From: an uncultured Candidatus Saccharibacteria bacterium
GTDB lineage: Bacteria; Patescibacteriota; Minisyncoccia; Phycocordibacterales; CSBR16-119
NCBI GenBank assembly: GCA_964606255.1
Contig: CAZSFS010000002.1
Span: forward strand, 1 to 44,203
DNA: 44,203 nucleotides
Direction: 5' to 3'
This document shows positions 460 through 44,175 of this stretch, piece by piece. Both the position numbers and the translations under genes were made by a program. The first letter of the stretch is position 1, and every line of letters starts with the position of its first letter. The notes beneath the pieces were generated by a model. That model saw only the letters and a list, made by a program, of their open reading frames with translations, made no database searches and was not told where the DNA came from.

Positions 460-1365
460 ATGTGGATCATCAAACATCAAAAAGTTTTTCTCGCTATTTC
501 TGGAATCTTTATCCTTGCTTCGATCGTATCGCTATCGGTTTTTGGTTTGAAAGTCGGAATTGATTTCAAAGGTGGATCTTTTACCGAAGTTTCTTATGTT
601 GACGAAATGCCGACAATTGTTGAAATTCAAGAACAAATAGCAACGCTTGAGTTTGGAGAAACACTGGTTCAGCCAGTTGGTAACAGCGAAGTTTCGATCA
701 AATCTCGAAGTCTGTCTGAAGCTGAGCGTCAATCACTTATCTCAGCACTTTCTTTCGGTGAAAAATATGATGTAGAAGAAAGATCTTTTACGTCTGTTGG
801 GCCATCTGTCGGAAAAGAACTTAAACGTCGCGCCATTGTTTCGCTCGTTATTGTAGAGATTGTGATGATTTTGTTTATCGCTTACGCTTTCCGTAAGGTT
901 TCAAAACCAGTGTCATCTTGGAGATTTGGTTTTGTCACAGTCGCCACACTTTTGCACGACGTTATCATGACGGTTGGGGTTTTTACCCTCATCAGTTATT
1001 TTACTGGAGCCGAAGCCAACACTCTTTTTGTTGTGGCACTTTTGACTGTACAAGGTCTGTCGGTTAACGATACGATTGTTGTTTTCGATCGAATTAGAGA
1101 GAATCTGATAAATAATAAAGATGGGAAATTAGATTTCAAAACAATCGTAGGTAAATCTATTAATCAAACGGTTTTTCGTTCACTAAATACGTCCCTCTCA
1201 ACAATTATCGTTCTTGTCTGTTTGGTTTTATGGGGTCCAGAATCAACCCGAATCTTTTCTTTGACATTGGCAGCCGGAATGTTTTTCGGAACGTACTCGT
1301 CAATATTTATCGCTTCACCACTCCTTACGCTTGTCGATAAGTGGCAAGGAAAGAGCAGCTCGTAA
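460..1365 (+). CDS. secF: Protein translocase subunit SecF
   Basis: ATG at 460 (MWIIKHQKVFLAISG...). 'GIDFKGGS', 'GLSVNDTIVVFDRIREN' and six predicted TM segments are present. The gene follows secD directly. Confidence 0.9.
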   Translation: MWIIKHQKVFLAISGIFILASIVSLSVFGLKVGIDFKGGSFTEVSYVDEMPTIVEIQEQIATLEFGETLVQPVGNSEVSIKSRSLSEAERQSLISALSFGEKYDVEERSFTSVGPSVGKELKRRAIVSLVIVEIVMILFIAYAFRKVSKPVSSWRFGFVTVATLLHDVIMTVGVFTLISYFTGAEANTLFVVALLTVQGLSVNDTIVVFDRIRENLINNKDGKLDFKTIVGKSINQTVFRSLNTSLSTIIVLVCLVLWGPESTRIFSLTLAAGMFFGTYSSIFIASPLLTLVDKWQGKSSS

Positions 1366-1484
1366 AATTGGCCACAAAAAGGCACGAGGTTCTGTATGTA
1401 AACCACAGACCTCTCCCTCTCGAAAAAGCCCGTCCTTCAAAAGGCGGGCTTTTTCTTGCGAGAGTCCTTTTTGTGGCCAATTTT
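1364..1484 (+). repeat. Copy 1 of a structured intergenic element: a 19-bp outer stem enclosing two hairpins, one of them terminator-like
   Basis: Outer stem AAAATTGGCCACAAAAAGG (1364-1382) pairs with CCTTTTTGTGGCCAATTTT (1466-1484). The inner hairpin is GAGGTTCTGT..ACAGACCTC. The hairpin CTCTCGAAAAAGCCCGTCCTTCAAAAGGCGGGCTTTTTCTTGCGAGAG contains a GC stem followed by a T-run. The 3' ~60 nt are identical to the copy at 22672-22804. Confidence 0.8.
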
Positions 1485-1512
1485 ACTCCGAAGAGAGGTT
1501 GGAAATTAGGTC

Positions 1513-1542
1513 TTGCGTACCTTGCCAAAAGGGGACTATAAT
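1513..1542 (+). promoter_or_regulatory. Putative sigma-70 promoter of lemA (TTGCGT-18-TATAAT), with the -10 ending 6 nt before the ATG
   Basis: TTGCGT is at 1513-1518 and TATAAT at 1537-1542; the ATG is at 1549. No Shine-Dalgarno sequence can fit in the 6-nt gap. Confidence 0.5.
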
Positions 1543-1548
1543 ACTCCC

Positions 1549-2103
1549 ATGACAACTTTAATCATTTTGGGGGTAGTCGCCGTTATTATTATCGGCATAT
1601 TTAATAGCTTAGTTAGGGCTCGTACCAGAGCTCTCGAAGCCTGGGCTGATATCGATGTCCAATTAAAACGTCGTTATGATCTCATTCCTAACTTGATCGA
1701 GACTGTCAAAGGTTACGCCACACATGAAAAAAATGTTTTAGAGTCTGTAACCAATGCTCGAAATATGGCGATTGGGAGCGGAGCTATGGGCACACCTGAG
1801 TCTCGTGACAAGGCGGAAAATGCTTTGAGCGCGACTTTGAAATCTTTGTTTGCTGTATCTGAAAATTATCCAGAACTTAAAGCCAATCAAAATTTTTTGT
1901 CGCTTCAGTCTGAGCTCTCGGATACCGAAAACAAGATTCAGGCTGCGCGTCGATTCTATAATAGTACGGTCAGAGACTTGAACATGAAGATCGAAACTTT
2001 TCCGACGAACATTTTTGCCGGAATGTTCCGATTCAAAATGAAAGAGTTCTTTGGTCTAGATGCTGCGCCGGCCGAGCGTGAGAATATCGCTGTGAAATTT
2101 TAA
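1549..2103 (+). CDS. lemA: LemA family membrane protein
   Basis: There is an N-terminal TM segment, then 'AWADIDVQLKRRYDLIPNLIETVKGYATHEK' and 'NYPELKANQNFLSLQSELSDTENKIQAARRFYN', which are typical LemA signatures. Confidence 0.85.
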   Translation: MTTLIILGVVAVIIIGIFNSLVRARTRALEAWADIDVQLKRRYDLIPNLIETVKGYATHEKNVLESVTNARNMAIGSGAMGTPESRDKAENALSATLKSLFAVSENYPELKANQNFLSLQSELSDTENKIQAARRFYNSTVRDLNMKIETFPTNIFAGMFRFKMKEFFGLDAAPAERENIAVKF

Positions 2104-5070: not shown

Positions 5071-5100
5071 ATCAAAACCCGCCGAAAGGCGGGTTTTGAT
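5071..5100 (+). terminator. Rho-independent terminator
   Basis: The hairpin is AAAACCCGCC-GAAA-GGCGGGTTTT. Confidence 0.75.
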
Positions 5101-6905: not shown

Positions 6906-6992
6906 CGGAGACGGGGAGATTCGAACTCCCGAAGGCTTTGACACCTTGCTACCTTTCCAAGATAGTGCACTCGACCACTATGCGACGTCTCC
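6906..6992 (-). tRNA. tRNA-Ser (anticodon GGA), class II with a long variable arm; CCA not encoded
   Basis: The reverse complement is GGAGACG-TC-GCA..TGC-A-CTATC-TTGGAAA-GGTAG-[AAGGT-GTCAAA-GCCTT]-C-GGGAG-TTCGAAT-CTCCC-CGTCTCC-G. It has a 7-bp acceptor stem, the 3-bp D stem typical of Ser, a canonical T loop and anticodon GGA. Confidence 0.9.
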
Positions 6993-13748: not shown

Positions 13749-14789
13749 ATGGTTAAAAACGCCAATACCAAATCAAAAGCTGAACTCCTGGCCCAGATTG
13801 AAAGGGAAGATTTTCGTCGGAAAACTTTGTCTTTCTATAAATACGTCAAAATCACTAATCCAAAGGCGATGCGAGATTTTCTGTTTGAGAACTTCGAAAA
13901 ACTTGGATGTTTGGGGCGAATTTATGTTGCACACGAGGGCATAAATGCCCAGATGAATGTTCCAGAACCAAAATGGGATGAGTTTAATAATTTTATCCAA
14001 TCAATTCCAGAATTTGCCGGCGTACCGTTTAAGATCGCGGTGGAGGAAAAAGGGAAATCGTCTTTTTTGAAATTGATCGTAAAAGTTAGAAATAAAATTG
14101 TTGCGGACGGTATTGATGATCCGACGTTTGATCCGGGAAATACTGGCGAATATGCGACTGCCGAAGAGGCAAACGCAATGATTGATAGAGGTGCCACTGT
14201 TATTGATATGAGAAATCTTTATGAGGCAACCATCGGACATTTTGAAAATGCAAAGATAATGGAGGTGGATACTTTCCGTGAGCAGTTAGCCAAAGTCAAA
14301 GACATGTTCAAAGACGACAAAGATGAAGAAGTCCTGCTCTACTGTACTGGTGGAATTCGCTGTGAAAAGGCTTCGGCCTGGATGAAGCATAATGGATTTA
14401 AAAATGTAAAACACATAAAAGGTGGCGTGATCGATTATGCACATCAAGTTAAAGAAAAAGGTTTGCCAAATAAATTTAAAGGCAAAAATTTCGTTTTTGA
14501 TGAAAGATTGGGTGAGAGAATTGGAAATGAAATTATTTCAGATTGTCAGATCTGTTACAAAGAAAAGTGCGATGACTATATTCATTGCAAGAATCAGTTT
14601 TGCCACACCCTGTTTATTTGTTGTCCGAAATGCATTGCCAAACTTGATGGATACTGTTCGCGAGTGTGTTTGGTGGCCGACAAACTTCCCAAATCTCTAA
14701 ATAAGTTTTTCATTCGTGCCGATAGACAAAAGCACAAGAATCAATACAAGAAAAATTACAAGAGATCAAAAACAATTGTCCGCGATTAG
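13749..14789 (+). CDS. trhO: Rhodanese-domain protein of the UPF0176/YceA family (tRNA uridine(34) hydroxylase TrhO)
   Basis: 'LSFYKYVKITNPKAMRDFL...GRIYVAHEGINAQMNVP' is present. The rhodanese active-site loop appears as 'LLYCTGGIRCEKASAWMK'. The C-terminal tail is Cys-rich. Confidence 0.8.
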   Translation: MVKNANTKSKAELLAQIEREDFRRKTLSFYKYVKITNPKAMRDFLFENFEKLGCLGRIYVAHEGINAQMNVPEPKWDEFNNFIQSIPEFAGVPFKIAVEEKGKSSFLKLIVKVRNKIVADGIDDPTFDPGNTGEYATAEEANAMIDRGATVIDMRNLYEATIGHFENAKIMEVDTFREQLAKVKDMFKDDKDEEVLLYCTGGIRCEKASAWMKHNGFKNVKHIKGGVIDYAHQVKEKGLPNKFKGKNFVFDERLGERIGNEIISDCQICYKEKCDDYIHCKNQFCHTLFICCPKCIAKLDGYCSRVCLVADKLPKSLNKFFIRADRQKHKNQYKKNYKRSKTIVRD

Positions 14790-14800
14790 CGGACAATTGT
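14772..14800. terminator. Bidirectional terminator hairpin shared by the convergent trhO and protease genes
   Basis: A 12-bp perfect stem, ACAATTGTCCGC-GATTA-GCGGACAATTGT, is followed by TTTTA. It overlaps the trhO stop codon. Confidence 0.7.
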
Positions 14801-14801
14801 T

Positions 14802-16778
14802 TTATTGGACGGTGAGCGGAAAAGTTGTTGTTGTTGAAAGTCCGGAAGTGGTATTTGTAATTATAATCGGTAATGTGTATTGTCCCGGTGCAGTGTTGGG
14901 ACCAATAAAGATACTAAAACTTCTATTTCTCTCATCATCAGGTTCTAGATTTGATAAAAATTCTACAACGGTAGGATTGTTAAAATTCGCCTGTGTGATT
15001 CCATTGGGGACTGTACCGAGTGTTGCTGTAAAATTTGTATTAGGACATGAAATATAATCCATATTTATAATTCGAAGCGTCACACCCCAGTTGTAACCAG
15101 AATTTCCAGGGTCAACGACCGTTGTGGGATTATTACCCCAGACACTTACCCTTGGTGGTAAATGAGTACAAGCAAGATTTGGATTCATGGTAACTTGAAA
15201 TCTTCGAGAATTTTGATTGATGGGTGGTAAAGTTGTGATCGTTAGACCATAACGAGGTTCTGAGTATGTTTGTCCTTGATTGAGTGATACTTGATATGGA
15301 TTTTCATTACTCAGATTTGGGGCTCCGCGGAGATATATCAGTCGAGCATTTTTTGTATCTAATTGATTAGCTACATTTCCTTCGTATCCTTCTTTGTACA
15401 CCATGATGCCATTTTTATTTTCAGCAATATTGTATGGGGGAACTTCTCCGCCGCCACCCTGCATTCCTCCAAGGGCCGGGGTATTGAGTCCCGCATCAAA
15501 ACCGTATCCATTGCGAAATTCTATCCATATGGGAGTTTTATTTGAGTTCATCGATGGTTTTATTTTATATGCTTTTGCTGTGGAATTTATAAAGGAAAGA
15601 GTCCCTGTGTTTGATATTGGTGAAGCAAGATCGCGTATGTTGTAAATACCAGACTCCGTAATAGTTTGGAGTTCGTTAGCGCTAAACCAGCCAAGTTTTG
15701 CTTTTGCCCAAGCATTAAAATGTAGACCAATTGTATTGTACGCCATGACATCAAAATAGTTTCCAACCGTTAAACTTTGGCAATCGTCAATAGATGGTGA
15801 TCCTTCACATGATAAACCGTGAGCGTGAAGAAGTCCCAAAGCATGACCAAATTCATGAATGAGTAGATGTTCAAGATTTGTGAGAACGTGAGAACCATTC
15901 ATGCTTTCAACCATTTGAAAGCTTTGACTGTTCCACATATTTACTGAAGTATTTACCCACGTTACTGTTTTATTATAGGTTACTCCATTTATCGTGTATG
16001 GTTGGGGACCGGTGTTAGACATACCATATGAAATATTTCCATCACAAAGAGTGATGATGAGGATATTTGTATAATTATTAAGATCAATGGAGGATCCAGC
16101 TATGAATGGACCCAAATCACTTGTTGTAGCGGGGCACGATTCGTTTTCCGCCGTGGTGAACCAGCCAAACACATCGCCAGTAATTGACTGTCTACCGTAA
16201 GACACCTCATTAAAATATTGTTTGAATTTTCCCGTGCCGAACATGATATCGTTTACGGTTGAAGGATAGAATGGTTGAGATGAGCTATTTTGATTGTCTA
16301 ACAAAAATACAGCCAATTTTTTAGTCTTTTTTGATGTTAATGGTTGAGTTTTTTTTGCTTCCCTCACACCATCAAAAGTTTCTCCGACAAACTTTGCGTT
16401 CGACAATGTTACAATTCCTGTTTTTGTATCTAGCGTTCCCTTGACATCATAATAACCATTTTTAAAATTCACTACTATGTCGTCTCCCACGACCAAGTAT
16501 CTTTTTCCATTTATGAATATTTCTTGAATGATTTTCTCACTTCCTTCTTTTAAAAAATTTTCAGATATGGTGATACCGATAGGATATTTACCAGCTATTT
16601 CAACTTTTGTTCCAACTTCTTCTTTTATTGGGGACGTTTGAGTTACTTTTGTGTTAACGAAAAGCAAGACTCCGGCCATTTGACCATTCACCGGATTAAT
16701 ACTTGTAATTGAAACAGATAGCGCCGATAAAATTATGGCAAAAGTAATCAGACCACCCTTAGACATATTTGTTTTCAT
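14802..16778 (-). CDS. Secreted zinc metalloprotease with an M6 (immune inhibitor A-like) domain and a C-terminal beta-sandwich-like domain
   Basis: The N-terminus is signal/TM-like (MKTNMSKGGLITFAIILSALSVS). 'YFNEVSYGRQSITGDVFGWFT' is typical of the M6 domain. The motif 'IHEFGHALGLLHAHG' fits HExxHxxGxxH. The start could instead be 16766. Confidence 0.75.
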   Translation of the reverse strand: MKTNMSKGGLITFAIILSALSVSITSINPVNGQMAGVLLFVNTKVTQTSPIKEEVGTKVEIAGKYPIGITISENFLKEGSEKIIQEIFINGKRYLVVGDDIVVNFKNGYYDVKGTLDTKTGIVTLSNAKFVGETFDGVREAKKTQPLTSKKTKKLAVFLLDNQNSSSQPFYPSTVNDIMFGTGKFKQYFNEVSYGRQSITGDVFGWFTTAENESCPATTSDLGPFIAGSSIDLNNYTNILIITLCDGNISYGMSNTGPQPYTINGVTYNKTVTWVNTSVNMWNSQSFQMVESMNGSHVLTNLEHLLIHEFGHALGLLHAHGLSCEGSPSIDDCQSLTVGNYFDVMAYNTIGLHFNAWAKAKLGWFSANELQTITESGIYNIRDLASPISNTGTLSFINSTAKAYKIKPSMNSNKTPIWIEFRNGYGFDAGLNTPALGGMQGGGGEVPPYNIAENKNGIMVYKEGYEGNVANQLDTKNARLIYLRGAPNLSNENPYQVSLNQGQTYSEPRYGLTITTLPPINQNSRRFQVTMNPNLACTHLPPRVSVWGNNPTTVVDPGNSGYNWGVTLRIINMDYISCPNTNFTATLGTVPNGITQANFNNPTVVEFLSNLEPDDERNRSFSIFIGPNTAPGQYTLPIIITNTTSGLSTTTTFPLTVQ

Positions 16779-18107: not shown

Positions 18108-20150
18108 ATGGCTGAAAAGGTAAAAGGTAGTTATAACGCTGACGATATTTCGGTTCTCGAGGGTCTTGAGCCTGTCAGAAAGCGTCCTGGAATGTACATT
18201 GGTTCGACTGGACCGGATGGTCTTCATCACCTCATCAAAGAAATTTTTGACAACTCCCGCGACGAAGCTATGGCCGGACATTGTGATCACATCGAGGTTA
18301 CTTTGCTTCCAGGCAACATCGTGCGCGTAGCCGATAATGGCCGAGGAATTCCAGTTGATCTTCATAAACAAACAAAAGTTTCTGCGCTCGAAACTATTCT
18401 CACAGTTCTTCACGCCGGTGGAAAATTCGGCGGTAAGGACAAAGGTTACAAAGTTTCCGGAGGTTTGCACGGCGTTGGTGCTTCAGTCGTAAACGCTCTC
18501 TCTATCTACATGAAAGCCGAAGTACATCGCGATGGCGGTAAATTCGTCCAAGAATACAAACAGGGAAAACCAAAAGCCAAAGTCAAAGAGATCGGCAAAT
18601 CAAAACTTCACGGAACGATCATTTCTTTCGAACCAGATGTTGAAATTTTCAAAGAAGTAAAATTTGATTGGAACAGAATAGTTCATCACTATCGCGAACA
18701 AGCCTATCTCGTCAAAAAACTTCGCATTACGCTTATCGACGCGCGTGGATATGCGGGTAAGGTTCCTGAAGACGGATATTATTACTTCCAAGAAACGGGC
18801 ATCGAGGTTCCTTCGACAACTTTTTATTTCGAAGGAGGAATCGTCTCAATGGTCGCGCACTATAACAAAGATCAGAAAAAAATTCAGGACAAAATTTTCT
18901 CAGTCGACAAAGATGTCGACGATATCAACGTCGAGATTGCGCTTCAATATGTCGATGATATCGTGGATCACATTATTCCTTTTGCCAACAACATTTCAAC
19001 TCCGGGCGGCGGTATGCACGTCACCGGTTTTAAAACTGCGCTTACTCGTCTAATCAACAACTACTCGAAGAAAAATAATATTTTGAACGAAAAGGAAGGC
19101 GGATTTACTGGTGAGGACGTACTCGAGGGACTCACTGCTGTTATTTCTATTAAAATGCCGGAAATTCAGTTCGAAGGCCAGACCAAAGACAAGCTTGGTT
19201 CACCCGAAGCTCGTGGAGCCGTCGAAACAGTTTTCTCGACTGCATTTTCACAATTCCTCGAAGAAAATCCTGATGAAGCTCGCGCAATTTTAAATAAAGC
19301 AGTTCTTGCTCTCAAAGCACGTAAAGCCGCCAAAGCCGCGAAAGATTCAGTTCTCCGCAAAGGCGCACTCGAGGGCTTAACGCTACCAGGTAAACTTGCC
19401 GACTGTCAGTCCAAAGATCCATCAGAATCAGAACTATTCATCGTCGAGGGAGACTCTGCGGGCGGTTCGACCAAAATGGGTCGCGATCGTCGTACTCAGG
19501 CCGTACTTCCACTCAAAGGAAAAATTCTAAACGTCGAACGCGCACGCCTCGACAAGATGCTTGATTCGAAAGAAGTAAAGTCTCTCGTCATCGCACTCGG
19601 AACTTCTATCGGCGACACTTTCAATCTCGAAGACATTCGCTATCACAAAATCATTATCGCAACCGATGCCGACGTGGACGGCGCGCACATTCGAACACTT
19701 CTTCTGACATTGTTTTATCGATATTTCAAACCGGTTATAGAAGCAGGTTACATCTACATCGCCCAGCCACCACTCTATAAAATTACAAAAGGCAAAATGG
19801 TGACATATCTTTATTCTGACGAAGATAAAAATAAATTCTTGAAAGCCGAAGGAATCAAAGAAGGCGATGTTCAAATTGTCGAAGAGTCCGAATCTGGTGA
19901 GCCAGTCGAAGAAACACCGGAAAAGAAAGCTTCGAAGATTTCTGTTCAGCGTTACAAGGGTCTCGGAGAAATGAACCCAGACGAACTCAAGGAAACAACG
20001 ATGGATGTAAACAATCGAATTCTTCTACAAGTCAAAATCGAAGACGCTGTCGAAGCTGACAAAACTTTCGACATCCTGATGGGTTCAGAAGTTCCTCCTC
20101 GAAAATCTTTCATCCAATCAAACGCCAAATTAGCAGAGATTGATATATAG
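18108..20150 (+). CDS. gyrB: DNA gyrase subunit B
   Basis: 'YNADDISVLEGLEPVRKRPGMYIG', 'LHAGGKFGG..YKVSGGLHGVGASVVNALS', 'PGKLADC', the Toprim motif 'EGDSAGGS', 'IIIATDADVDGAHI' and 'QRYKGLGEMNPDEL' are all present. Confidence 0.95.
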   Translation: MAEKVKGSYNADDISVLEGLEPVRKRPGMYIGSTGPDGLHHLIKEIFDNSRDEAMAGHCDHIEVTLLPGNIVRVADNGRGIPVDLHKQTKVSALETILTVLHAGGKFGGKDKGYKVSGGLHGVGASVVNALSIYMKAEVHRDGGKFVQEYKQGKPKAKVKEIGKSKLHGTIISFEPDVEIFKEVKFDWNRIVHHYREQAYLVKKLRITLIDARGYAGKVPEDGYYYFQETGIEVPSTTFYFEGGIVSMVAHYNKDQKKIQDKIFSVDKDVDDINVEIALQYVDDIVDHIIPFANNISTPGGGMHVTGFKTALTRLINNYSKKNNILNEKEGGFTGEDVLEGLTAVISIKMPEIQFEGQTKDKLGSPEARGAVETVFSTAFSQFLEENPDEARAILNKAVLALKARKAAKAAKDSVLRKGALEGLTLPGKLADCQSKDPSESELFIVEGDSAGGSTKMGRDRRTQAVLPLKGKILNVERARLDKMLDSKEVKSLVIALGTSIGDTFNLEDIRYHKIIIATDADVDGAHIRTLLLTLFYRYFKPVIEAGYIYIAQPPLYKITKGKMVTYLYSDEDKNKFLKAEGIKEGDVQIVEESESGEPVEETPEKKASKISVQRYKGLGEMNPDELKETTMDVNNRILLQVKIEDAVEADKTFDILMGSEVPPRKSFIQSNAKLAEIDI

Positions 20151-20151
20151 C

Positions 20152-20181
20152 AAAAAATCCCCGAGAGGGGATTTTTTGTTT
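20152..20181. terminator. Bidirectional terminator between gyrB (+) and the small-ORF pair (-)
   Basis: The hairpin is AAAAAATCCCC-GAGA-GGGGATTTTTT. Confidence 0.75.
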
Positions 20182-20183
20182 TA

Positions 20184-21979: not shown

Positions 21980-22672
21980 ATGCCGAACTTCGCGAAATTT
22001 GAAACCGAAAATAACTTAGACTTCAAAGACAAGGATCTACTAAAACAAGCTTTTACTCATCGATCATATATAAACGAAAACGCTGGTGCAGGGTCTCACA
22101 ATGAACGCCTAGAATTTTTGGGCGATGCGGTGCTTGAACTCGTCACAACTGAAGAGCTTTTTGCACGCTACCCAGGTAAATCAGAGGGCGACCTAACCGC
22201 TATCCGTGCGGCTGTCGTTAATACCGTTTCGATTTCTGCTGCGGCGGTGGAGCTTGGCATGAACGACTATCTTCTTTTGTCCAAAGGCGAAGCCAAAGAT
22301 ACAGGCAAGGCACGTGACTACATTCTCGCTAACACTTTCGAATCAGTTATCGGCGCGATATTTCTAGACGCTGGTTATGATGCGGCCAAGAAATTCATAG
22401 CCGATGCTTTGTTTGGCAAGATTGAAAAAATCGTTGCTCAGAAACTTTGGCGCGATTCCAAGTCTCTAATCCAAGAAAAAGCTCAAGAGATTGTGAACAT
22501 TACGCCGCGCTATGAAGTGCTTGAAGAAACCGGCCCAGACCATGATAAGAATTTTACTATCGGTGTATTTTTTGGAGATGAACTTATTGCCAAAGGCTCC
22601 GGCAAATCCAAACAAGAAGGTGAGCAGGCTGCGGCTCAGGAAGCACTCAAGCTAAAAAAGTGGTTGGATTAG
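21980..22672 (+). CDS. rnc: Ribonuclease III
   Basis: The signature 'NERLEFLGDAVLELV' is present, together with a C-terminal dsRBD ('KNFTIGVFFGDELIAKGSGKSKQEGEQAAAQEAL'). Confidence 0.93.
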   Translation: MPNFAKFETENNLDFKDKDLLKQAFTHRSYINENAGAGSHNERLEFLGDAVLELVTTEELFARYPGKSEGDLTAIRAAVVNTVSISAAAVELGMNDYLLLSKGEAKDTGKARDYILANTFESVIGAIFLDAGYDAAKKFIADALFGKIEKIVAQKLWRDSKSLIQEKAQEIVNITPRYEVLEETGPDHDKNFTIGVFFGDELIAKGSGKSKQEGEQAAAQEALKLKKWLD

Positions 22673-22804
22673 CAAAGAAAAATACTCATAAAAAGGCACG
22701 AAGTTTTGCCTGTAAACGGCAAACTTCTCCCTCTCGAAAAAGCCCGTCCTTCAAAAGGCGGGCTTTTTCTTGCGAGAGTCCTTTTTATGAGGATTTTTCT
22801 TTGC
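22672..22804 (+). repeat. Copy 2 of the structured intergenic element (25-bp outer stem with one mismatch)
   Basis: GCAAAGAAAAATACTCATAAAAAGG (22672-22696) pairs with CCTTTTTATGAGGATTTTTCTTTGC (22780-22804). The inner hairpin is GAAGTTTTGCC-TGTAAAC-GGCAAACTTC. The 3' ~60 nt are identical to copy 1. Confidence 0.8.
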
Positions 22805-22810
22805 CTGGTG

Positions 22811-22819
22811 TGGTAAAAT
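22811..22819 (+). promoter_or_regulatory. Extended -10 box (TGgTAAAAT) abutting the smc start region
   Basis: The sequence reads TGGTAAAAT-ATGGGG-GTG. The ATG at 22820 directly follows the box. The GTG at 22826 is 6 nt downstream and would give the SMC-typical N-terminus (M)KLKRIELLGFKSF. Confidence 0.45.
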
Positions 22820-25057
22820 ATGGGGGTGAAATTAAAGAGGATTGAACTTCTCGGGTTTAAGTCGTTTGCCAAAAAAAGCAGACTGGATTTTGACGTGCCG
22901 GTTGTTGGAATCGTCGGGCCAAACGGATCTGGAAAATCAAACGTTGTTGAAGCTTTCCGGTTTGTCCTTGGCGAACAATCAATGAAATCTCTGCGTGGAA
23001 AGTCAGGCTCGGATCTTATATTCAAAGGCTCAAAAGATTTACCAAAAGGCTCACGCGCTTCAGTGGAAATAACTTTTGATAACAAAGATCGCGTTTTTAA
23101 ATTGGGAGAACGTTCCGAGCCAATCAATCTGGATTTCGATGAAATAATTTTAAAACGAGAAGTTTTTGCTGATGGAAATAATATTTACTACATCAACAAT
23201 TCAGCTGTTCGTTTGAAAGACATTGTCGAAATGTTGGCTTCGGTAAATATCGGTGCTTCGGGTCACCATATTATTTCTCAGGGTCAAGCCGACAGGATTC
23301 TCACAAGTTCAGCCAAAGATCGTCGGATCATGATTGAGGATGCTTTAGGTCTCAAAGTTTATCAAAACAAACTCAAAGAATCGCACAAGAAACTTGAAAA
23401 GACCGAAGAGAACATGAAAGAAGTCGGAATGCTTCGTCGTGAACTTGCGCCACATATAAAATATCTCAAGAAACAAGTTGAAAAAGTTGAAAAAAGCGTC
23501 GAGCTTCGAAGTGAACTTTCTAAACTTTATTTAACCTTTTTCAAATCAGAAGAAAAGTTTTTACAAAACGAAGAAGCTTTCCTGAAAAGTAAAAATCACG
23601 ATCGAGAACGCGAACTAAAAGAAATTGAAGTCAAATTAGCTTCGATGAAAGATGTCTCAACAAATGATTTCGAGTCTTCAAAAAATATCGAAATCAGTAA
23701 TTTGGAAAAAGAAATTGTTTCGCTTGAACGAACCAAAGATGATTTATCCAGAAAGCTTGGACGTATCGAAGGTATGATCGAATTTGAGAATCGATCGACA
23801 ACTGATAAACCAGACAGTATTTCAATCAAATCAAGCGACCTCGAGACGTTCATTAGTGAGATGGAAAACACTCTCGAAAGATCTTTGGCGGATTCAAACC
23901 TCGAAGTTATAAAATCAAATCTCAAGTATTTGAGAAAAGCTATAACGGACTTTGGCCAGAGATTTAAACAAAATAAAGCTGAAAACAAACCAAACTCTTT
24001 CAAGGATCTAGAAGTTACAAAGCGTGAAGTCACGGCTCAGCTAGAAGAAATTGAAAGAGTAAGAAAAGTTCATTTGGAAAAAATGAATTCTTTGCGTTCT
24101 TCGATTGAGTCAAATAGAGTGACGATGTTCAAAGACCAAGAAGAAAAATTTGCTCTTGAAAATAAAAAGAACAAGATTTTGGCCGAAGAAGAAATTCTCC
24201 AAAACCGAAATGAATTTTTCAAAAAGCGAAAAGCTTCTTTTGAAGAAGGAGTCAAAGAAGCTGTCGTTTTGGTTGGTCAAGAAATTTTACAATTTCGAAC
24301 AAGTGATATTTCGATTGTCGAAGTCACTGACGAGATGCGTCACAACATTGAGCGTCTCAAAATCAAACTCGAAGACGCGGGTACTGGCTCTGGCGATGAC
24401 GTAATGAAAGAATATCAAAGTATTACAGAACGAGATAATTTCTTGGTCAAAGAGCTCGAAGATTTAGAAAAAAGTATTTCCAATTTACGTACACTTATTG
24501 ACGATCTTAAAGAAACTCTGGACAGAGAATTCAAAGAAGGCATGGAGAAAATCAATGCTCGTTTTGAGGAATTTTTCAAACTTATGTTTGGTGGTGGCGC
24601 AGCTTATCTGTCTAGCATTGTTCAGGGATCAAAGAAAAATGATTCGGAAGAAGACGATGAGTCTGGAGAAAGTTCGGATGCGGACGGGGAAGAGAGACTT
24701 GATTATGGTATTGAGATTAACGTGACTTTGCCACAAAAGAAGGTGAAAGACCTGGCCATGCTTTCTGGTGGCGAACGCTCACTTACTTCTATCGCGCTTG
24801 TCTTTGCCGTGACTCAAGTTAACCCGCCGCCATTTTTGGTTCTCGATGAAACGGATGCGGCACTCGACGAAGCAAATTCCAAACGTTATGGAGACATGAT
24901 CGAAATTCTTTCGAAGTATTCTTCGCTTATTACTGTTACGCACAATCGCGAAACTATGTCTCGTGCGGACGTTATCTACGGAGTCACCATTGGTGCCGAC
25001 GGTGGATCGAAACTTCTCTCAATTAAATTCTCCGACGCCGAAAATTACGCTAAATAA
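22820..25057 (+). CDS. smc: SMC-family ATPase, unusually short (745 aa) with no recognisable hinge
   Basis: The N-terminal head shows 'RIELLGFKSF...GPNGSGKSNVVEAFRFVLGEQSMKSLRG'. The C-terminal head shows 'LSGGERSLTSIALVFA' and 'FLVLDETDAALDEAN'. The middle is coiled-coil-like, contains no Cys and no Gly-rich hinge motif. Confidence 0.8.
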   Translation: MGVKLKRIELLGFKSFAKKSRLDFDVPVVGIVGPNGSGKSNVVEAFRFVLGEQSMKSLRGKSGSDLIFKGSKDLPKGSRASVEITFDNKDRVFKLGERSEPINLDFDEIILKREVFADGNNIYYINNSAVRLKDIVEMLASVNIGASGHHIISQGQADRILTSSAKDRRIMIEDALGLKVYQNKLKESHKKLEKTEENMKEVGMLRRELAPHIKYLKKQVEKVEKSVELRSELSKLYLTFFKSEEKFLQNEEAFLKSKNHDRERELKEIEVKLASMKDVSTNDFESSKNIEISNLEKEIVSLERTKDDLSRKLGRIEGMIEFENRSTTDKPDSISIKSSDLETFISEMENTLERSLADSNLEVIKSNLKYLRKAITDFGQRFKQNKAENKPNSFKDLEVTKREVTAQLEEIERVRKVHLEKMNSLRSSIESNRVTMFKDQEEKFALENKKNKILAEEEILQNRNEFFKKRKASFEEGVKEAVVLVGQEILQFRTSDISIVEVTDEMRHNIERLKIKLEDAGTGSGDDVMKEYQSITERDNFLVKELEDLEKSISNLRTLIDDLKETLDREFKEGMEKINARFEEFFKLMFGGGAAYLSSIVQGSKKNDSEEDDESGESSDADGEERLDYGIEINVTLPQKKVKDLAMLSGGERSLTSIALVFAVTQVNPPPFLVLDETDAALDEANSKRYGDMIEILSKYSSLITVTHNRETMSRADVIYGVTIGADGGSKLLSIKFSDAENYAK

Positions 25058-25106: not shown

Positions 25107-25427
25107 TCACTTCTTTTTGTTTGATCCGCGACGGCGACGTTTCTTTGGCACCAGACTCGAAAGTGCCTTCATGAACTCGTCAGTTAGTTTGAGGCCCTTC
25201 ACCGGCACGCAAACGTAGCCTGGGGTTTGGTTGGAGGCGTTCTTTGATGTAGACACCTTGCTCAGAGCCTCCATGGTCTTAGGGAACTCTTCCTCCGGCA
25301 ATTCATTCAGAACCGCGAAGACCATCTTAACCCCACGAATGCTCTTGTAACCCGGAGGTATACGGAGCATTCGACGACGTTGACGACGCTTCTTTGGCTC
25401 ATCGGTCAGTATTGCTTTCTTGGCCAT
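25107..25427 (-). CDS. Hypothetical basic protein (106 aa) with Arg/Lys-rich termini
   Basis: The translation runs MAKKAILTDEPKKRRQRRRMLRIPPGY...SLVPKKRRRRGSNKKK. It is GC-richer than its surroundings. An AGGTG lies a few nt upstream of the ATG. I recognise no family. Confidence 0.5.
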   Translation of the reverse strand: MAKKAILTDEPKKRRQRRRMLRIPPGYKSIRGVKMVFAVLNELPEEEFPKTMEALSKVSTSKNASNQTPGYVCVPVKGLKLTDEFMKALSSLVPKKRRRRGSNKKK

Positions 25428-31055: not shown

Positions 31056-31076
31056 ATAATTAATAAGTGTTAACAA

Positions 31077-31109
31077 GCAAAAAACCGTCCTATAGGGGCG
31101 GTTTTTTGC
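31077..31109 (+). terminator. Rho-independent terminator
   Basis: The hairpin is GCAAAAAACCGTCC-TATA-GGGGCGGTTTTTTGC. Confidence 0.7.
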
Positions 31110-31112
31110 TAC

Positions 31113-31141
31113 TTGACACACACATTGTATTGTGCTAGTAT
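31113..31141 (+). promoter_or_regulatory. Promoter (TTGACA-17-TGcTAGTAT) for the 31209 gene, with a ~60-nt leader
   Basis: TTGACA is at 31113-31118 and TAGTAT at 31136-31141, preceded by TGc. The leader contains the hairpin GTCTAGC-TTC-GCTAGAC. Confidence 0.55.
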
Positions 31142-33730: not shown

Positions 33731-33947
33731 AAGCCATCGCAAGCGATGACCGGGCTCGTCACTTTTTTACGGAGAAAAAAGTAACCAAAAACTCCTTCGA
33801 CCTGACAAAATAGTTGCTAAAACCAAAAGATTTTAAGCCAAAAAGATCCGTAAACTCGGAAAGCTTGGGCTTTCCTCAAACAGTACGGACTTTTAAGGCA
33901 AAATCTCTTGGTTTCTTAACGCACTATTGTGTATGGTCGGACGACGG

Positions 33948-33975
33948 TTGACGTCCTATCATTTTCATGTATACT
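33948..33975 (+). promoter_or_regulatory. Putative rpoBC promoter (TTGACG-16-TATACT), giving a ~175-nt leader
   Basis: TTGACG is at 33948-33953 and TATACT at 33970-33975; the rpoB ATG is at 34156. Confidence 0.5.
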
Positions 33976-34155
33976 ATAAAAACTAATTGCCCAGATTGAG
34001 TTTTGGCCGCCACAAGCAATTGTATTAGTAGGGAGAAGCTAAATACAAAGCTTTTGAAGAAAATTTTATAAAACCAAGAGATCATTAGACAATGAGGTCG
34101 TAACCTTGTTGATTTTTGCTTTTTTGGAGTCGAGTTAATTTTAATAATTATTGTC

Positions 34156-37100
34156 ATGGCAAAAACAAAGACGTTGAAGAGAGAAAAAAAATATTTCTCA
34201 AAGTATAAAGAGCCGTTGGTCGCGTACCCAAATATGCTCGAAACTCAGCTTAATTCATTTAAGTGGCTCATCACTGATGGATTGAAAGAGGTTTTCAAAG
34301 AGTTTTCTCCGCTCGAAGATTACTCGGGCAAGAAATTCGAATTGCGATTCGAATCATTTGAACTTGGTGAACCAAAATTTGATCCTCACTATGCCAAAGA
34401 AAACAAACTCTCCTACGAAGCACCTCTAAAGGTTCGCGCCAAACTTCTCAACAAGTTGAATGGCTCAAAGAAAGAGCAGGAAATTTTCATGACAGATTTC
34501 CCGCTCATGACTTCGAACGGTACGTTCATCATCAACGGTGTTGAGCGTGTTATCGTGGCCCAGCTCACTCGATCATCAGGAGTTTTCTTCACCGCAGCCG
34601 ACCTAAAAGGTCGTCGAAAATTTGGAGCCAAAATTATCCCAAACCGCGGTGTTTGGATTGAAATTGAAACTGACAAAGACGACACGATTTTTGCTCGTAT
34701 CGACAAGAAGCGAAAATTCCCAGTAACAAGTCTTTTGCGCGTGATGGGACTCGACACCGATGACAAGATCCGAAAGTCTTTTGCCGGTAATCCTGCCTCT
34801 GAAAAACTCGTTAACATGATGCTTGAAAAGGATCATGCCAAGACTGTCGAAGAGGCTTACGTTGATATCTATAAAAGACTTCGCGACGGTGACATGGCTA
34901 CGGCTGACAACGCCAAAGAATTTGTTGACGGAATTTTCACAACCGAAAGATATGATTTCTCTAAAGTTGGACGACATCGATTCAGTCAACGATTCGACAA
35001 ATCTATGGATAAAGCCGAACTTGAACGACAGACTCTTAACGCTGATGACATTGTCACTATCGTAAAACACATCTTTGAATTAAATAACGACAAAAATGCT
35101 AAAGCCGACGACATCGATCACTTGGGTCGACGTCGCGTGCGATATGTTGGAGAACTTCTTCAGCAAAAATTCCGTGTTGGTATGACTCAGATCAAGCGAA
35201 ACATTCAGGACAGAATGTCGACTATCGAATCAGATGGCGCTGCTCCTGTGACTGTCATTAATCAGCGACCGCTACAGGCTCGTGTCAAAGAATTTTTCAC
35301 TACGAACCAACTTTCACAATTCATGGATCAGGAAAACGTTATTTCCGAACTTGAACACTTGAGAATTCTCTCAGCGTTAGGTCCTGGAGGACTTACTCGC
35401 GAACGCGCTGGTCTTGAAGTTCGCGACGTTCACACGTCCCACTACGGTCGCGTTTGTCCGATTCATACGCCAGAAGGTCCAAACATCGGTTTGGTTCTTC
35501 ACCTTTCAACCTATGCAAAGATAAACGAATTCGGCATCATCGAAACTCCTTATGCCAAAGTAAAAAATGGAAAATTGACTGGCGAGATCGTGTACATGAA
35601 CGCTCTTGAAGAAGAGAAATATAACATCGCGCACGCGGGTGTTCCTAGAGATGACAACGGAAACATTATTCCAGAAGAAGTTGAGGCGCGTGTCAAAACA
35701 TCTCCAGGCATTGTCGCGAAAAAAGATATTGATTTTATCGATGTGGCGACAAACCAAGCGTTCTCTCTTGGTACTTCGATGATTCCTTTCCTCGAACACG
35801 ATGACGCGAACCGCGCACTCATGGGATCAAACATGCAAAAACAAGCTGTGCCTTGTGTTATCCCGATGGCACCGTTGGTTGGTACTGGTATCGAAGAAGT
35901 CATCGCGCGTGACTCCGGACGACTTGTGATCGCTGAAGAAGCCGGAGAAATTACGTATGTTGATGCTAAGAAAATCACCGTTACTCCAAATTCTGGCAAA
36001 CCAAAAACATATGAACTCGTTAATACCGTTCGCACAAACAAATTCTCTCTTATGCGCCAGCGTCCATCGGTAAACTTGGGCGATAAAGTTAAAAAGGGCG
36101 ATGTTTTGGCTGATGCGCCTTCAACTGATCACGGTCAGGCGGCTATTGGACAAAACGTTCTTGTTGCCTTCATGTCATGGGACGGACGAAACTACGAGGA
36201 CGCCATTATTTTGTCAGAACGTTTGGTCAAAAATTCAGTTTTCACTTCTATTTATGTTGAAGAATTTACTTGTGTCGTTCGAGACACAAAACTGGGGGCC
36301 GAACAAACTACTCCAGACATTCCAAACGTCGGTGAAGCTAAATTGAAAGATCTCGATGAAGAAGGAATTGTTCGTGTTGGTGCTGAAGTTCGTGAAAACG
36401 ACATTTTGGTTGGAAAAATTACGCCAAAGGGCGAGACTGAACTTACTCCAGAAGAAAGACTCCTTCGATCAATCTTTGCTGAAAAAGCGCGTGACGTTAA
36501 AGATACATCAATGCGAGTTTCTCCTGGAAACGAAGGTCGTGTTATTGGTGTGAAGGTTTTCTCACGTGACAAAGGTCATCAGCTAGAATCAGGAATCATC
36601 AAGAAAATTATTGTTGAGGTTGCTCAGGTTCGAAACATTTCAGTGGGAGACAAACTTGCTGGTCGTCACGGAAACAAAGGTGTTATCTCGACAATTCTTC
36701 CAGAAGAAGAAATGCCATACATGGCTGACGGTACTCCGGTCGACGTGATCCTTACACCACTTGGCGTTCCATCACGTATGAACTTGGGACAAATTCTTGA
36801 GATGCACTTGGGTCTTGCAGCTCATACTCTAAATTATCAGGCAATCGTGCCACTATTTGGAGGCGCATCAAATGATGAAATAAAACAAGAGCTTGTCAAA
36901 GCTGGTTACAACGAATCTGGAACTATGCAACTTTTCGACGGCCGAACAGGTGAATCATTCGAACAGGAAGTTGCTGTTGGTTATATGTACGTCTTGAAAC
37001 TTCACCACATGGTTGAAGACAAGGTTCACGCTCGCGCCATTGGACCATACTCACTTATTACTCAGCAGCCACTTGGAGGTAAAGCTCAATCTGGAGGTCA

Positions 37101-40300: not shown

Positions 40301-40989
40301 AAGTATTTGATATTCGCGACGAAGGCAAAGATAAGATCATCAAAGTTCTGTCTGATTCAAAAGGTGACAAGCCTGCCCGGCCAGGGAAAGATAACGAAAT
40401 GGAATATGTTATCCCATTCCGCCGAACTGCTGTCGTTAAAAAAGGCGACAAAGTAAAGAAAGGTCAACTTCTAACTGATGGTTCTGCGAAGATTAATGAA
40501 ATCTTTGCTTACGGTGGAAAAGAATTGGCCGAAAACTACATCATTGACGAGATCAACAAAGTTTACGAACTTCAGGGTGCTCCAATCGGACGCAAACACT
40601 TGGAAATCATCGTTCGTCAAATGTTCTCTCGAAAGAAAGTTCTTGATCCGGGTGACACGATGTTTTCTCCAGGCGAAGTCGTTGAACACGTTGAATTCGA
40701 AAAAGAAAACGAGATTATCAAGAACGAAGGTGGTAAACCGGCAACTGGCGAGTTCATTGTTCGTGGTATTACCGACGTGTCTTTGACCACAAAATCATGG
40801 CTATCTGCTGCGTCATTCCAAAACACTAACCGCGTTCTTATCAACAACGCTATTAAAGGTGGCGTTGATAACTTGCGAGGTCTAAAAGAAAACGTCATCA
40901 TTGGTCGTCTAATTCCAGCTGGAACAGGTTTGCGCGGCGAATACAAACATCTAGACAAGGACGAATTTGGTGAAGAAGCTGTTTTTTAG
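37348..40989 (+). CDS. rpoC: DNA-directed RNA polymerase subunit beta'
   Basis: The Zn finger '[23 protein letters not shown]' is present, along with '[15 protein letters not shown]', the catalytic '[11 protein letters not shown]' and '[25 protein letters not shown]'. Confidence 0.97.
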   Translation: [1213 protein letters not shown]

Positions 40990-41034: not shown

Positions 41035-41117
41035 ATCCCGATAGTGATCGCGGTCGCTTTCGGGAAACGGACCGACATTGATTAATTTTAAAGACCGCGA
41101 CCTATCACTATCGGGAT
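41035..41117 (+). promoter_or_regulatory. Long inverted repeat (~20-bp arms) between rpoC and dnaG; its 3' arm covers the dnaG start codon
   Basis: ATCCCGATAGTGATCGCGGTC (41035-41055) pairs with GACCGCGA(CCT)ATCACTATCGGGAT (41093-41117). The dnaG ATG is at 41116. Confidence 0.6.
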
Positions 41118-42846: not shown

Positions 42847-44175
42847 ATGCCTAAATCTAAAAAGAAAGTTGTAAAAAAGGTCTCTAAAAAAGCCAAGAAA
42901 CCAATCAAAAAACCAATCAAGCCTGTCCGGCCAGGGAAAGTAAAAAAGGCCAAGAAACCTTTAAAGCCTGCCCGTCTGACCGGCCAGGGGCCAGGGAAAA
43001 AGGTCGTCAAGAAACCTATCAAGCCTGTCCGGCCAGGGAAAGCCATTAAAAAGGCCAAACCTGCTCCAAAGCCAAAAGTAAAAGCCGAGTCCAAGAATCC
43101 AAAAGTCATGGCCATAAAGGCCAAAATTGATGATTTGGTGACCAAAGGCAAGAAAAGAGGCTTCATCACCTATGACGAGATTTTGAAGAATTTCCCAAAT
43201 ATTGAAACCGACGTCATTATGCTCGATGATCTGTACGCGCAATTCATGGAGGCTTCGATCGATGTGATTGAGGGTGGAAATTTGCTCGACATGGATGTCA
43301 ACGACAAGAAGTCTATCGAAAAGTATTCGAAAGATAAAAAATCTCGCGACTCGATTCAGATGTATCTCAAAGAAATCGGACAGTATCCACTCATCAAAGC
43401 TTTTCAGGAAAAAGATTTGGCCAAAAGAATTGAACTTGGTGATGTCGAAGCCAAAAACTTACTTGCTCGCGCGAACTTGCGTCTCGTTGTTTCGATTGCA
43501 AAGAAATACGCTGGTCGTTCATCAGACCTGACACTTCTCGATCTTATCCAAGAAGGAAACCTCGGCCTATTTAAAGCCGTCGAAAAATTCGATTGGAAAA
43601 AAGGCTACAAATTCTCGACCTATGCGACTTGGTGGATTCGTCAATCAATCACACGTGCGCTTGCTGACCAATCTCGCACCATTCGTATTCCAGTTCACAT
43701 GGTGGAAACAATTTCCAAATATAAACAAGTTTACCGAAGACTTTTTCAAGACTTGGGACGCGAACCTCTGGCTGAAGAAATTGCAACAGAAATGGGCGTC
43801 GAAGTAGAAAAAATTCACGTTATTGAAAAGATCAGTCAGACCACGGCGTCACTTGAAAAACCAATTGGTGATGACGAAGACAAATCGACCCTCGGTGAAT
43901 TTATTGCTGATGACAAAATCATGCGACCGGATCAAGAATCTGCTCAGCGAATTCTTTCTGACCAAATCAGAGAAGTTCTAAACGAGCTCACTCCAAAAGA
44001 AAAGAAAATTCTTGAGATGCGCTATGGACTCGAAGATGGTATTCAGCATACACTCGAAGAAGTCGGTCACGAATTCGGTGTTACTCGCGAACGTATTCGA
44101 CAAATCGAAGCCAAAGTCCATGAAAAACTTCGTTCAAACGAAAAGATCATTCGACTCCGGAATCACTTCGATTAA
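42847..44175 (+). CDS. rpoD: Primary-type sigma-70 factor with a Lys/Pro-rich polycationic N-terminal extension
   Basis: Region 1.2 is '[14 protein letters not shown]'. Region 2 is '[52 protein letters not shown]'. Region 4 is '[23 protein letters not shown]'. The first ~85 aa are K/P/V/A repeats ([11 protein letters not shown]). Confidence 0.93.

Follow-up and report, generated by a model that had tools for sequence, protein, structure and literature searches.

A conserved hairpin core nested in locus-specific terminator-like palindromes: a candidate interspersed repeat of Saccharibacteria

Why should two intergenic spacers of one genome carry the same branched structure, with part of its sequence identical to the letter and its outermost helix built of different sequence each time? 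The question is raised by a stretch of 44,203 nt from an uncultured Candidatus Saccharibacteria bacterium (positions 1 to 44,203 of contig CAZSFS010000002.1, assembly GCA_964606255.1), called the window below and used for all coordinates given without a contig number. In it, the spacers between secF and lemA and between rnc and smc each hold an element made of an outer helix (P1) that encloses a small hairpin (P2) and a long hairpin (P3). Our tentative answer, to which we would give a probability of roughly 45%, is that the element is a low-copy interspersed repeat, lodged in the apex of a palindrome that looks like a terminator, and that it brings a terminator with it and acts as a terminator or insulator. 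We infer several steps of this: termination, cleavage by RNase III, mobility, gene conversion and the insertion into a terminator that was already there. The parts of the two copies are as follows.

1362..1486, + strand: copy 1, composite of P1 and core, in the secF-lemA spacer; 158 bits with the covariance model, copy 1 itself being among the sequences used to build it
1362..1382, + strand: copy 1, P1 5' arm; outer 14 nt GTAAAATTGGCCAC (specific to the locus), inner AAAAAGG (common to the copies)
1466..1486, + strand: copy 1, P1 3' arm; CCTTTTT followed by GTGGCCAATTTTAC
1373..1472, + strand: copy 1, core of 100 nt in common with copy 2 (BLASTN)
1386..1413, + strand: copy 1, P2; stem variable, T bulge at 1391, TGTAAAC loop at 1397-1403
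1417..1464, + strand: copy 1, P3; lower stem CTCTCG/CGAGAG with a 4-nt bulge
1423-1457, + strand: copy 1, upper part of P3; AAAAAGCCCG-T-CCTT CAA AAGGCGGGC TTTTTCTT, resembling an intrinsic terminator on both strands
22672..22804, + strand: copy 2, composite, in the rnc-smc spacer; 163 bits with the covariance model
22672..22696, + strand: copy 2, P1 5' arm; GCAAAGAAAAATACTCAT followed by AAAAAGG
22780..22804, + strand: copy 2, P1 3' arm; CCTTTTT followed by ATGAGGATTTTTCTTTGC
22687..22786, + strand: copy 2, core of 100 nt (BLASTN)
22700..22727, + strand: copy 2, P2; GAAGT-T-TTGCC TGTAAAC GGCAAACTTC, loop at 22711-22717
22731..22778, + strand: copy 2, P3; long and terminator-like

An earlier note on this DNA had described the two copies, and most of its description holds. 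The 3' 60 nt of the core are identical, as it said: the window has exactly two occurrences of the 60-mer CTCCCTCTCG...GTCCTTTTT, one at 1413-1472 and one at 22727-22786, each on the + strand, with none expected from shuffled sequences. Over their full 100 nt the cores 1373-1472 and 22687-22786 are 91% identical by BLASTN, and all nine differences lie within P2. The paired substitutions described for this hairpin are there: copy 1 has GAGGT-T-CTGT...ACAGACCTC as its stem and copy 2 has GAAGT-T-TTGCC...GGCAAACTTC, with the bulged T and the loop TGTAAAC in each. In copy 1 the junction CAC (1383-1385) precedes P2 and TCC (1414-1416) comes after it. The core has short imperfect inverted ends of its own, CAY-AAAAAGG-C-AC and GT-CCTTTTT-RTG, which the P1 arms adjoin without any spacer at each window copy. 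The arms are 83 nt apart in both: 25 nt with one mismatch in copy 2 (22672-22696 and 22780-22804, 96% complementary), just as reported, and 21 nt without mismatch in copy 1 (1362-1382 and 1466-1486, 100% complementary), for which the reported 19 bp was slightly short. Minimum-free-energy folding returns the same three-way junction of P1, P2 and P3 for both copies, with energies of -68.2 kcal/mol for copy 1 against about -28 for shuffled sequences (z = -11.7) and of -66.5 kcal/mol for copy 2 against about -30 (z = -10.9). The shared architecture that had been proposed for the two spacers is thus an identical fold with z about -11. The opposite strand folds equally well or slightly better (-72.7 for copy 1 and -71.2 for copy 2).

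The element is not confined to the window. The covariance model, run over the window at full sensitivity, found no copies there beyond the two. Others turned up in relatives, in another Patescibacteria metagenome-assembled genome (MAG, L012; exact 20-mer) and in a permuted subfamily (covariance model). The protein encoded by rnc also lies on contigs of the uncultured Candidatus Saccharibacteria MAG GCA_964557535.1 and of JGI, ENA and Logan assemblies; contigs of relatives are cited below by L numbers. The rnc-smc site has strain variants in L001-L009, with flanks about 98% identical to the window, and the secF-lemA site in L025 and L037-L043. In L001-L009 the P2 stem is GCC/GGC, GTC/GAC or CTCGT/ACGAG, and complementarity and loop are kept every time. 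L033, a species-level relative (Rnc 93% identical as protein, 82.5% as DNA and 61% at third positions), holds the element at the rnc-smc site with a different, perfect P1 of 25-27 bp, whose closing pair has changed from G-C to C-G (AAAACG/CGTTTT), and with paired changes in P2 and P3 too. L044, from the same sample as L033, has a decayed secF-lemA copy that keeps the 5' half and P2 and has lost the 3' half and P1. At an unrelated locus of L012 (5135-5262) the core is 85-87% identical, and P1 is again of different sequence, with 18 of 21 positions paired. The arms of additional copies are self-complementary, perfectly in L033 and at 18/21 positions in L012:5135-5262; the decayed L044 has no P1 left.

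Two permuted members, recognized with the covariance model, have P2 and P3 in swapped order: L012:1024-1146 and the rnc-smc spacer of L031, whose Rnc is 77% identical to that of the window. Both keep the P1-closing AAAAGGCAC and AGTCCTTTT, the hairpin with the TGTAAAC loop and a terminator-like hairpin, and the L012 member has the P3 apex TCCTTCAAAAGG in common with the window element. L045, an ENA contig of 532 nt, holds a core with a P2 of the site-1 type; its left flank is a third one (the end of an unidentified open reading frame, AT-rich) and its right side is the smc flank of site 2, so that either the element has a third locus or the assembly made a chimera across the repeat. A protein-database search with four open-frame translations of the core gave a single match, P0241, on this possibly chimeric contig. 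Nine short Logan contigs (L006, L007, L009, L025, L038, L039 and L041-L043) stop inside the element, as expected of a repeat that breaks assemblies. In sum, the element is dispersed over at least two to three loci per genome, plus another MAG, and recurs in independent NCBI, JGI, ENA and Logan assemblies. Wider searches with short patterns returned mostly chance. The exact 20-mer GGCGGGCTTTTTCTTGCGAG had eight matches in genome_contigs, only two of them real (L012 and L015), six in metagenome_contigs, every one a chance terminator, and none in viral_contigs. A gapped pattern had no match in metagenome_contigs, a collection that evidently leaves out the JGI samples with this organism, and none of the 38 matches of the generic pattern AAAAGGCAC-N65-95-AGTCCTTTT in viral_contigs fitted the covariance model, which marks them as chance.

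Is it the sequence or the fold that is conserved? We aligned seven sequences (alignment A1), namely the window pair and five variants from related contigs that represent strain variants of both sites, the species-level relative and the copy at the unrelated locus of the other MAG; they are few and related, and part of the variation among the strains is probably due to exchange between copies. RNAalifold predicts 49 pairs on A1, of which 21 have changed on both sides while remaining paired. An independent count puts the paired cells at 97.7%, compared with 84.7% for shuffled alignments; the observed value was not attained by any of 500 shuffles, and pairing drops to 47-59% when partners are slid by one to three columns. 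The doubly changed pairs make up 11/21 in P1, 8/10 in P2 and 2/13 in upper P3. What does not vary is the unpaired sequence: CAC at the junction, TGTAAAC in the loop, the T bulge, TCC behind P2 and the P3 bulge of 4 nt. Events leading to G-U and to A-C pairs stand at about 6 to 4 in A1 and identify no strand. At the level of sequence, this covariation shows that the fold matters, and it would fit an RNA and a single-stranded DNA hairpin alike.

The earlier note had argued from compensatory change in two helices for selection on a fold. Further sequences confirm the covariation in both the outer helix and the small hairpin, and the conserved fold stands; a fold of RNA specifically does not follow, a DNA hairpin fitting equally well in the lack of a clear strand signal. 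As for the two helices, the paired changes in P2 are as described. The outer helices of the window copies are unrelated, locus-specific sequences and not diverged versions of one helix, and because of this the P1 difference between them is not itself compensatory evolution. True compensation is seen only between orthologues, window against L033 at the rnc-smc site, where homology can still be recognized in the outer 12 nt of P1 and AA/TT has become CC/GG and T/A has become G/C.

What do the hairpins and these outer helices look like? In P3 the GC stem (GCCCG-T-CCTT CAA AAGGCGGGC) is followed by the T-run TTTTTCTT and sits downstream of a stop codon, so that P3 has the marks of a predicted intrinsic (Rho-independent) terminator, and a bidirectional one because an A-tract lies upstream of the stem. 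The long hairpin had been called terminator-like, and we agree: the Rfam matches over it (1422-1455 in copy 1) are only terminator portions, such as that of Thr_leader, all sub-threshold, and its succession of A-tract, GC stem and T-tract is the form of the native terminators at 2664-2693, 5071-5100, 14769-14803, 20146-20183 and 31067-31119. A simple terminator scanner did not list P3, probably owing to the bulge. The locus-specific part of P1 has a similar look and resembles a native terminator: it begins A-rich, often as GCAAA, continues in a 7-9 bp stem and finishes T-rich. Six of seven P1 arms begin with G-Y-A-A, a start that is typical of native terminators here as well, and with its filters off the covariance model places native terminators on P1, interior deleted, at 15-21 bits. 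The composite is in effect an onion of predicted terminator-like palindromes, the outer layer belonging to the locus and the inner layers being the repeated unit.

The native terminators of the window deserve a description of their own. They are long, near-perfect palindromes with arms of 13-24 nt running from A-tract to T-tract and loops of 0-5 nt; some overlap flanking stop codons, and complementarity can reach well past the A and T tracts. The arms of the one at 31067-31119 measure 24 nt. Another clamped structure lies at 41035-41117, in the spacer after a gene for 1213 aa that ends at 40989, where a perfect 14-nt inverted repeat (ATCCCGATAGTGAT/ATCACTATCGGGAT) surrounds 55 nt with further hairpins; it has no similarity to the element.

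The position of the element relative to genes is constant. In copy 1, P1 runs over the TAA that stops secF (1363-1365), copy 2 begins at the G that ends the rnc stop codon TAG (22670-22672), and P1 overlaps the stop codon in L033 too. The element starts 0-10 nt past a stop codon at all five independent loci that hold a full element, and the TGTAAAC motif is on the sense strand at all six independent loci (TGCTAGAC in L012a). On the downstream side, two features outside the element come into play:

1514..1542, + strand: putative lemA promoter, TTGCGT, 17 nt, TATAAT, read from the sequence
22811..22819, + strand: putative extended -10 of smc, TGGTAAAAT, directly before the smc start

The placement upstream of the next gene's -10 box, as originally described, is correct, the distance being 50 nt from the end of copy 1 to TATAAT (1537-1542) and 6 nt from the end of copy 2 to TGGTAAAAT. 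TATAAT lies 6 nt ahead of the lemA ATG at 1549, a start that matches the gene call in L037 and would imply a leaderless lemA message or one with a very short leader; a consensus promoter scanner did not list the lemA promoter. The box ahead of smc, TG.TAAAAT, is kept in L026, L027, L031, L033 and L048, with or without the element. Boxes of this kind (TATAAT or TGnTAAAAT) lie 0-9 nt before annotated starts in the window (1537-1551 and 22811-22828) and before smc of L027, L031, L033 and L048, which suggests that the lemA and smc mRNAs may be leaderless or nearly so; relatives share this arrangement.

The rnc-smc spacer can be compared between genomes with and without the element. It is occupied in the window strains and in L033, and in L031 it holds the permuted subfamily. 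Other relatives are different:

L027 (Rnc 82% identical): rnc-smc spacer of 37 nt, no hairpin
L048 (Rnc 84% identical): rnc-smc spacer of 60 nt, no hairpin
L026 and L034 (Rnc 90-91% identical): rnc-smc spacer filled by a different nested-helix repeat, family B
L046 and L047 (Rnc 88% identical): a different gene follows rnc

The element is dispensable, since two relatives lack it and others have a different element there. In contigs from one sample, L033 and L044, the rnc-smc and secF-lemA sites are also occupied. Family B is unrelated in sequence. It is present in the window at 33756-33965, in the spacer 33731-34155 upstream of a gene for 1055 aa that starts at 34156, and occupies the rnc-smc spacer of L026 and L034-L036. 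Its core, AAGCCAAAAAGATCCGTAAACTCGG-[variable hairpin]-TCAAACAGTACGGACTTTTAAGGC, comes after a conserved hairpin, GTNACTTTTTT...AAAAAAGTAAC, and its stems vary between copies, orthologous ones included, yet remain complementary. The strains themselves are mosaic. Between 11980 and 32390, blocks about 98% identical to L001, L002 and L004 abut blocks at 78-85%, and small replaced segments distinguish strains too (window 25115-25415, for example), which indicates that recombination between related Saccharibacteria is probably frequent.

These observations can be brought together if the element is an interspersed repeat of Saccharibacteria and related Patescibacteria with a built-in terminator. 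The core consists of a base of short inverted repeats, a P2 with fixed loop and free stem, and a P3 topped by a predicted bidirectional terminator; it lies just past a stop codon and forms the tip of a palindrome that belongs to the locus. This terminator would end the upstream transcript and substitute for the host terminator split by the insertion; the supply of a replacement would explain why the element is tolerated directly after genes. In any read-through RNA, the P1 duplex of 21-27 bp might form and become a substrate for the genome's own RNase III, which is encoded in the window (21980-22672, Pfam). The cut would part the upstream message from the promoter region of the next gene and act as a fail-safe separation. 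Spread or exchange would rely on a trans-acting mechanism, and copies within a genome would be partly homogenized by gene conversion. The identity of the 3' 60 nt in the window copies is probably best explained in this way; recent duplication fits less well, because both loci are old and their P1 arms unrelated. Gene conversion between copies may also fit the larger P2 difference of L002, whose site-2 P2 has its outer half in common with the site-1 hairpin.

Several results weigh against this reading. No close empty site shows a pre-existing palindrome, the empty spacers of L027 and L048 being free of hairpins; P1 arms aligned to these two spacers score no higher than shuffles, and the A-rich similarity is one seen by eye. 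No target-site duplication is visible, and the flanks are inverted, not direct; an AT duplication of 2 bp could be read at copy 2 (CAT-...-ATG), and not at copy 1 (CAC-...-GTG). The hypothetical open reading frames of the window contain no transposase, integrase or HUH domain. The copy number appears low, with one exact 20-mer match in the species-representative genome, an uncertain count as assemblies break inside the element. The variable helices of family B lie within conserved sequence and cannot simply be host flanks, and the same could hold for P1. The member at L012:1024-1146 has a canonical terminator about 35 nt downstream, so that P3 need not be a working terminator there. Finally, should termination at P3 be efficient, transcription would seldom reach the 3' arm of P1, which comes after the T-run, and selection on P1 at the level of RNA would be left unexplained.

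A second explanation is that the element is a dedicated structured RNA and not selfish DNA, either a cis-element in the 3' untranslated region or a small RNA (sRNA) of about 80 nt made of P2 and P3, with the UGUAAAC loop as a binding site for a protein or RNA and P3 as its terminator. The junction would then be selected as an RNA fold, P1 would be a processing site or protective clamp, and the copies would stem from vertical descent with occasional duplication. The pattern usual for a functional RNA is present, as helices vary and unpaired positions are fixed across both subfamilies and across genomes (junction CAC, loop TGTAAAC, T bulge, CTCC behind P2, P3 bulge of 4 nt). The constant orientation (6/6 loci sense) and the position within 10 nt of a stop codon (5/5 full elements) agree with it, and so does the occupation of both the secF-lemA and the rnc-smc site across species-level divergence. 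At L012:1024-1146 the whole element lies ahead of the canonical terminator, where P1 would be transcribed, and single-sided changes on the + strand give G-U and not A-C pairs in the P2 of L041 type, the P2 of L044 and the P1 of L002 and of L033. Yet the ratio of such events in A1 is not decisive, and the - strand folds slightly better than the +. The element is also dispensable: spacers of 37 and 60 nt do without it and others hold different elements. That the inner hairpins come in either order is hard to square with one precise tertiary fold, and unrelated outer helices next to 60 identical nt in paralogues are a misfit with the simple divergence of a duplicated RNA gene. Moreover, no general promoter for a free-standing sRNA is evident. 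On balance, we regard a dedicated RNA as somewhat unlikely.

P1 could instead be neither an older terminator nor selected RNA and have been made at the level of DNA, by hairpin-templated strand switching during replication that copies one flank onto the other once the core has arrived, or by an inverted duplication of the target at insertion. Correction of quasipalindromes and outward growth of the palindrome would keep the arms perfect and turn single mutations into paired ones, the nested layers being a by-product. This would explain why the empty rnc-smc spacers of L027 and L048 lack a palindrome, why the arms adjoin the core without a loop remnant and pair continuously into its inverted ends, and why they are perfect or nearly so in every intact element. 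It would also account for native terminators that are complementary beyond the needs of termination, such as that with 24-nt arms at 31067-31119, and for the similar behavior of the unrelated family B. Nevertheless, the arms have the A-tract and T-tract form of native terminators and not that of random flanks, one-sided changes between strains have been left uncopied (L002 departs from the window in the 5' arm of P1 and has the same 3' arm), and both the orientation bias and the conserved unpaired bases would need a separate explanation. We consider an origin of P1 by such processes unlikely.

A more speculative possibility, which strikes us as improbable, is that the element belongs to an undescribed hairpin-directed class in Patescibacteria. 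It might be a mobile core that homes specifically to the apex of intrinsic-terminator hairpins or duplicates its target in inverted orientation, or a three-way-junction RNA processed by RNase III that releases a small P2-P3 RNA with the fixed UGUAAAC loop. The mobile form would bring a replacement terminator and would move by transposition or repair with no characterized enzyme. Either form would lead to a conserved centre, locus-specific complementary helices, stems that vary between near-identical strains and a swappable order of modules. The notion that nothing special is present, and that ordinary terminators resemble each other by chance, local duplication or assembly artefact, is excluded, for although P3 alone looks like an ordinary terminator, 60 identical nt 21 kb apart are not expected by chance (0 expected), the element recurs in independent assemblies and another MAG, and covariation in three helices exceeds all controls.

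How does the element compare with known systems? REP, BIME and REPIN sequences are extragenic palindromes that lie after the stop codons of co-directional or convergent genes, and when transcribed they stabilize the upstream mRNA. Each REP is an imperfect palindrome, 20-40 nt long and conserved in sequence, often starts with GTAG and goes with a RAYT transposase. Insertion sequences that target REP hairpins, such as IS1397/ISKpn1 and the IS110 family, are a precedent for an element entering the loop of an existing palindrome. The element described here differs from REPs and REPINs in being branched, 125-145 nt long and conserved at its centre; it is no short palindrome, and no Y1/RAYT domain is encoded within the window. 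The msr-msd RNA of retrons is similar in having a long variable outer helix (a1/a2) around a short hairpin region and a long hairpin, but it is single-copy and directly beside its reverse transcriptase gene. Here the neighbours are secF and lemA, rnc and smc, with no adjacent reverse transcriptase, and we rejected this identity. The end of a gene for a 318-aa protein with an RVT_1 domain (PF00078) lies at L037:1-31, about 6 kb upstream of secF, to the left of the window and not adjacent to the element; the size fits a reverse transcriptase of a retron or of a diversity-generating retroelement.

The nearest likeness is with SPRITE of Streptococcus pneumoniae, a terminator-like repeat with AAAA/TTTT ends that is enriched at the 3' ends of genes, for which neither cognate transposase nor target duplication was identified and co-option as a terminator was proposed (PMC3049150). 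Both are small terminator-like repeats near the 3' ends of coding sequences with very short inverted ends, AAAAAGG/CCTTTTT in our case. Unlike SPRITE, a single hairpin of about 18 bp with a U-rich tract and about 30 copies per genome, the element here is a three-way junction with an extra hairpin of fixed loop, a locus-specific helix of 21-27 bp and a seemingly lower copy number; the two have no sequence similarity and come from different phyla. Correia (NEMIS) elements of Neisseria and ERIC (IRU) elements of enterobacteria are likewise repeats of about 100-150 bp that form long hairpins when co-transcribed with their neighbours. RNase III cleaves Correia transcripts where the inverted repeats pair, one pneumococcal repeat can be inserted in another, and ERIC at the 3' ends of genes alters mRNA levels (PMC10969869). 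P1, with at least 21 bp, may be long enough to be an RNase III substrate too. In Correia and ERIC, however, the terminal inverted repeats are conserved and the centre is variable, whereas here the centre is conserved and the outer helix mostly locus-specific; Correia elements, moreover, make a TA duplication and number in the hundreds, and no duplication is seen here. The layout is thus the reverse of that of a MITE, or miniature inverted-repeat transposable element. Even so, the contention that a MITE would conserve its ends, and that the element is therefore none, was too strong. The core has short inverted ends, is dispersed, low-copy and absent from L027 and L048, and breaks assemblies; short inverted ends, low copy number, dispersal and absence in relatives are traits of SPRITE, Correia and ERIC.

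Other identities were considered and discarded. Integron attC sites, which stand in arrays beside an integron integrase, have RYYYAAC...GTTRRRY at the hairpin base, and the ends of P1 read GYAAA...TTTRC; the neighbours are housekeeping genes and no integrase was seen. Ends of the IS200/IS605 type are not a match, the two hairpins being unlike each other and TnpA absent. The search of Rfam, as the first description had anticipated, assigned the element to no known RNA family: none reaches the gathering threshold, only terminator fragments and chance hits lie over it at E<=10, and there is no Rfam signal for hammerhead, twister or other ribozymes, riboswitches or Y RNA. Within the window a single Rfam match exceeds its threshold, a tRNA (6906-6992, - strand, 52.5 bits). 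TGTAAAC is not enriched as a DNA uptake sequence would be (9 occurrences, 5.4 expected), and the LexA box CTGT-N9-ACAG occurs only in copy 1, by chance. Hypermutation is not clearly indicated, with 4 differences per 100 nt between the window and L001 on a background of about 2%. Apart from all this, direct repeats at 42886-43073 and 40355-40390, spaced by 48-57 and 102 nt (AAAAAGGCCAAGAAACC..., ...AAGCCTGTCCGGCCAGGGAAAG), fall within the window's last gene and are probably a repetitive, lysine- and proline-rich segment of its protein.

The element is thus best filed as a family of repeats or structures not described before, kin to the small palindromic interspersed repeats and found in an understudied phylum; the literature that we searched describes neither interspersed repeats nor structured intergenic RNAs for Saccharibacteria and other Patescibacteria. 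The genomes of these bacteria are tiny and tightly packed, and their non-coding features are almost unstudied. If our reading is true, a repeat that carries a terminator and nests in host hairpins would show how selfish or semi-domesticated DNA can survive in 20-150 nt of intergenic space. The element accounts in concrete terms for the breaks of metagenome assemblies at certain spacers, and its three helices, unchanging loop and permuted subfamily make it a test case for the conservation of folds. Were it to work as RNA, it would be a candidate motif of operon insulation dependent on RNase III; were P1 made by insertion, it would point to a hairpin-directed DNA mechanism that is not yet known.

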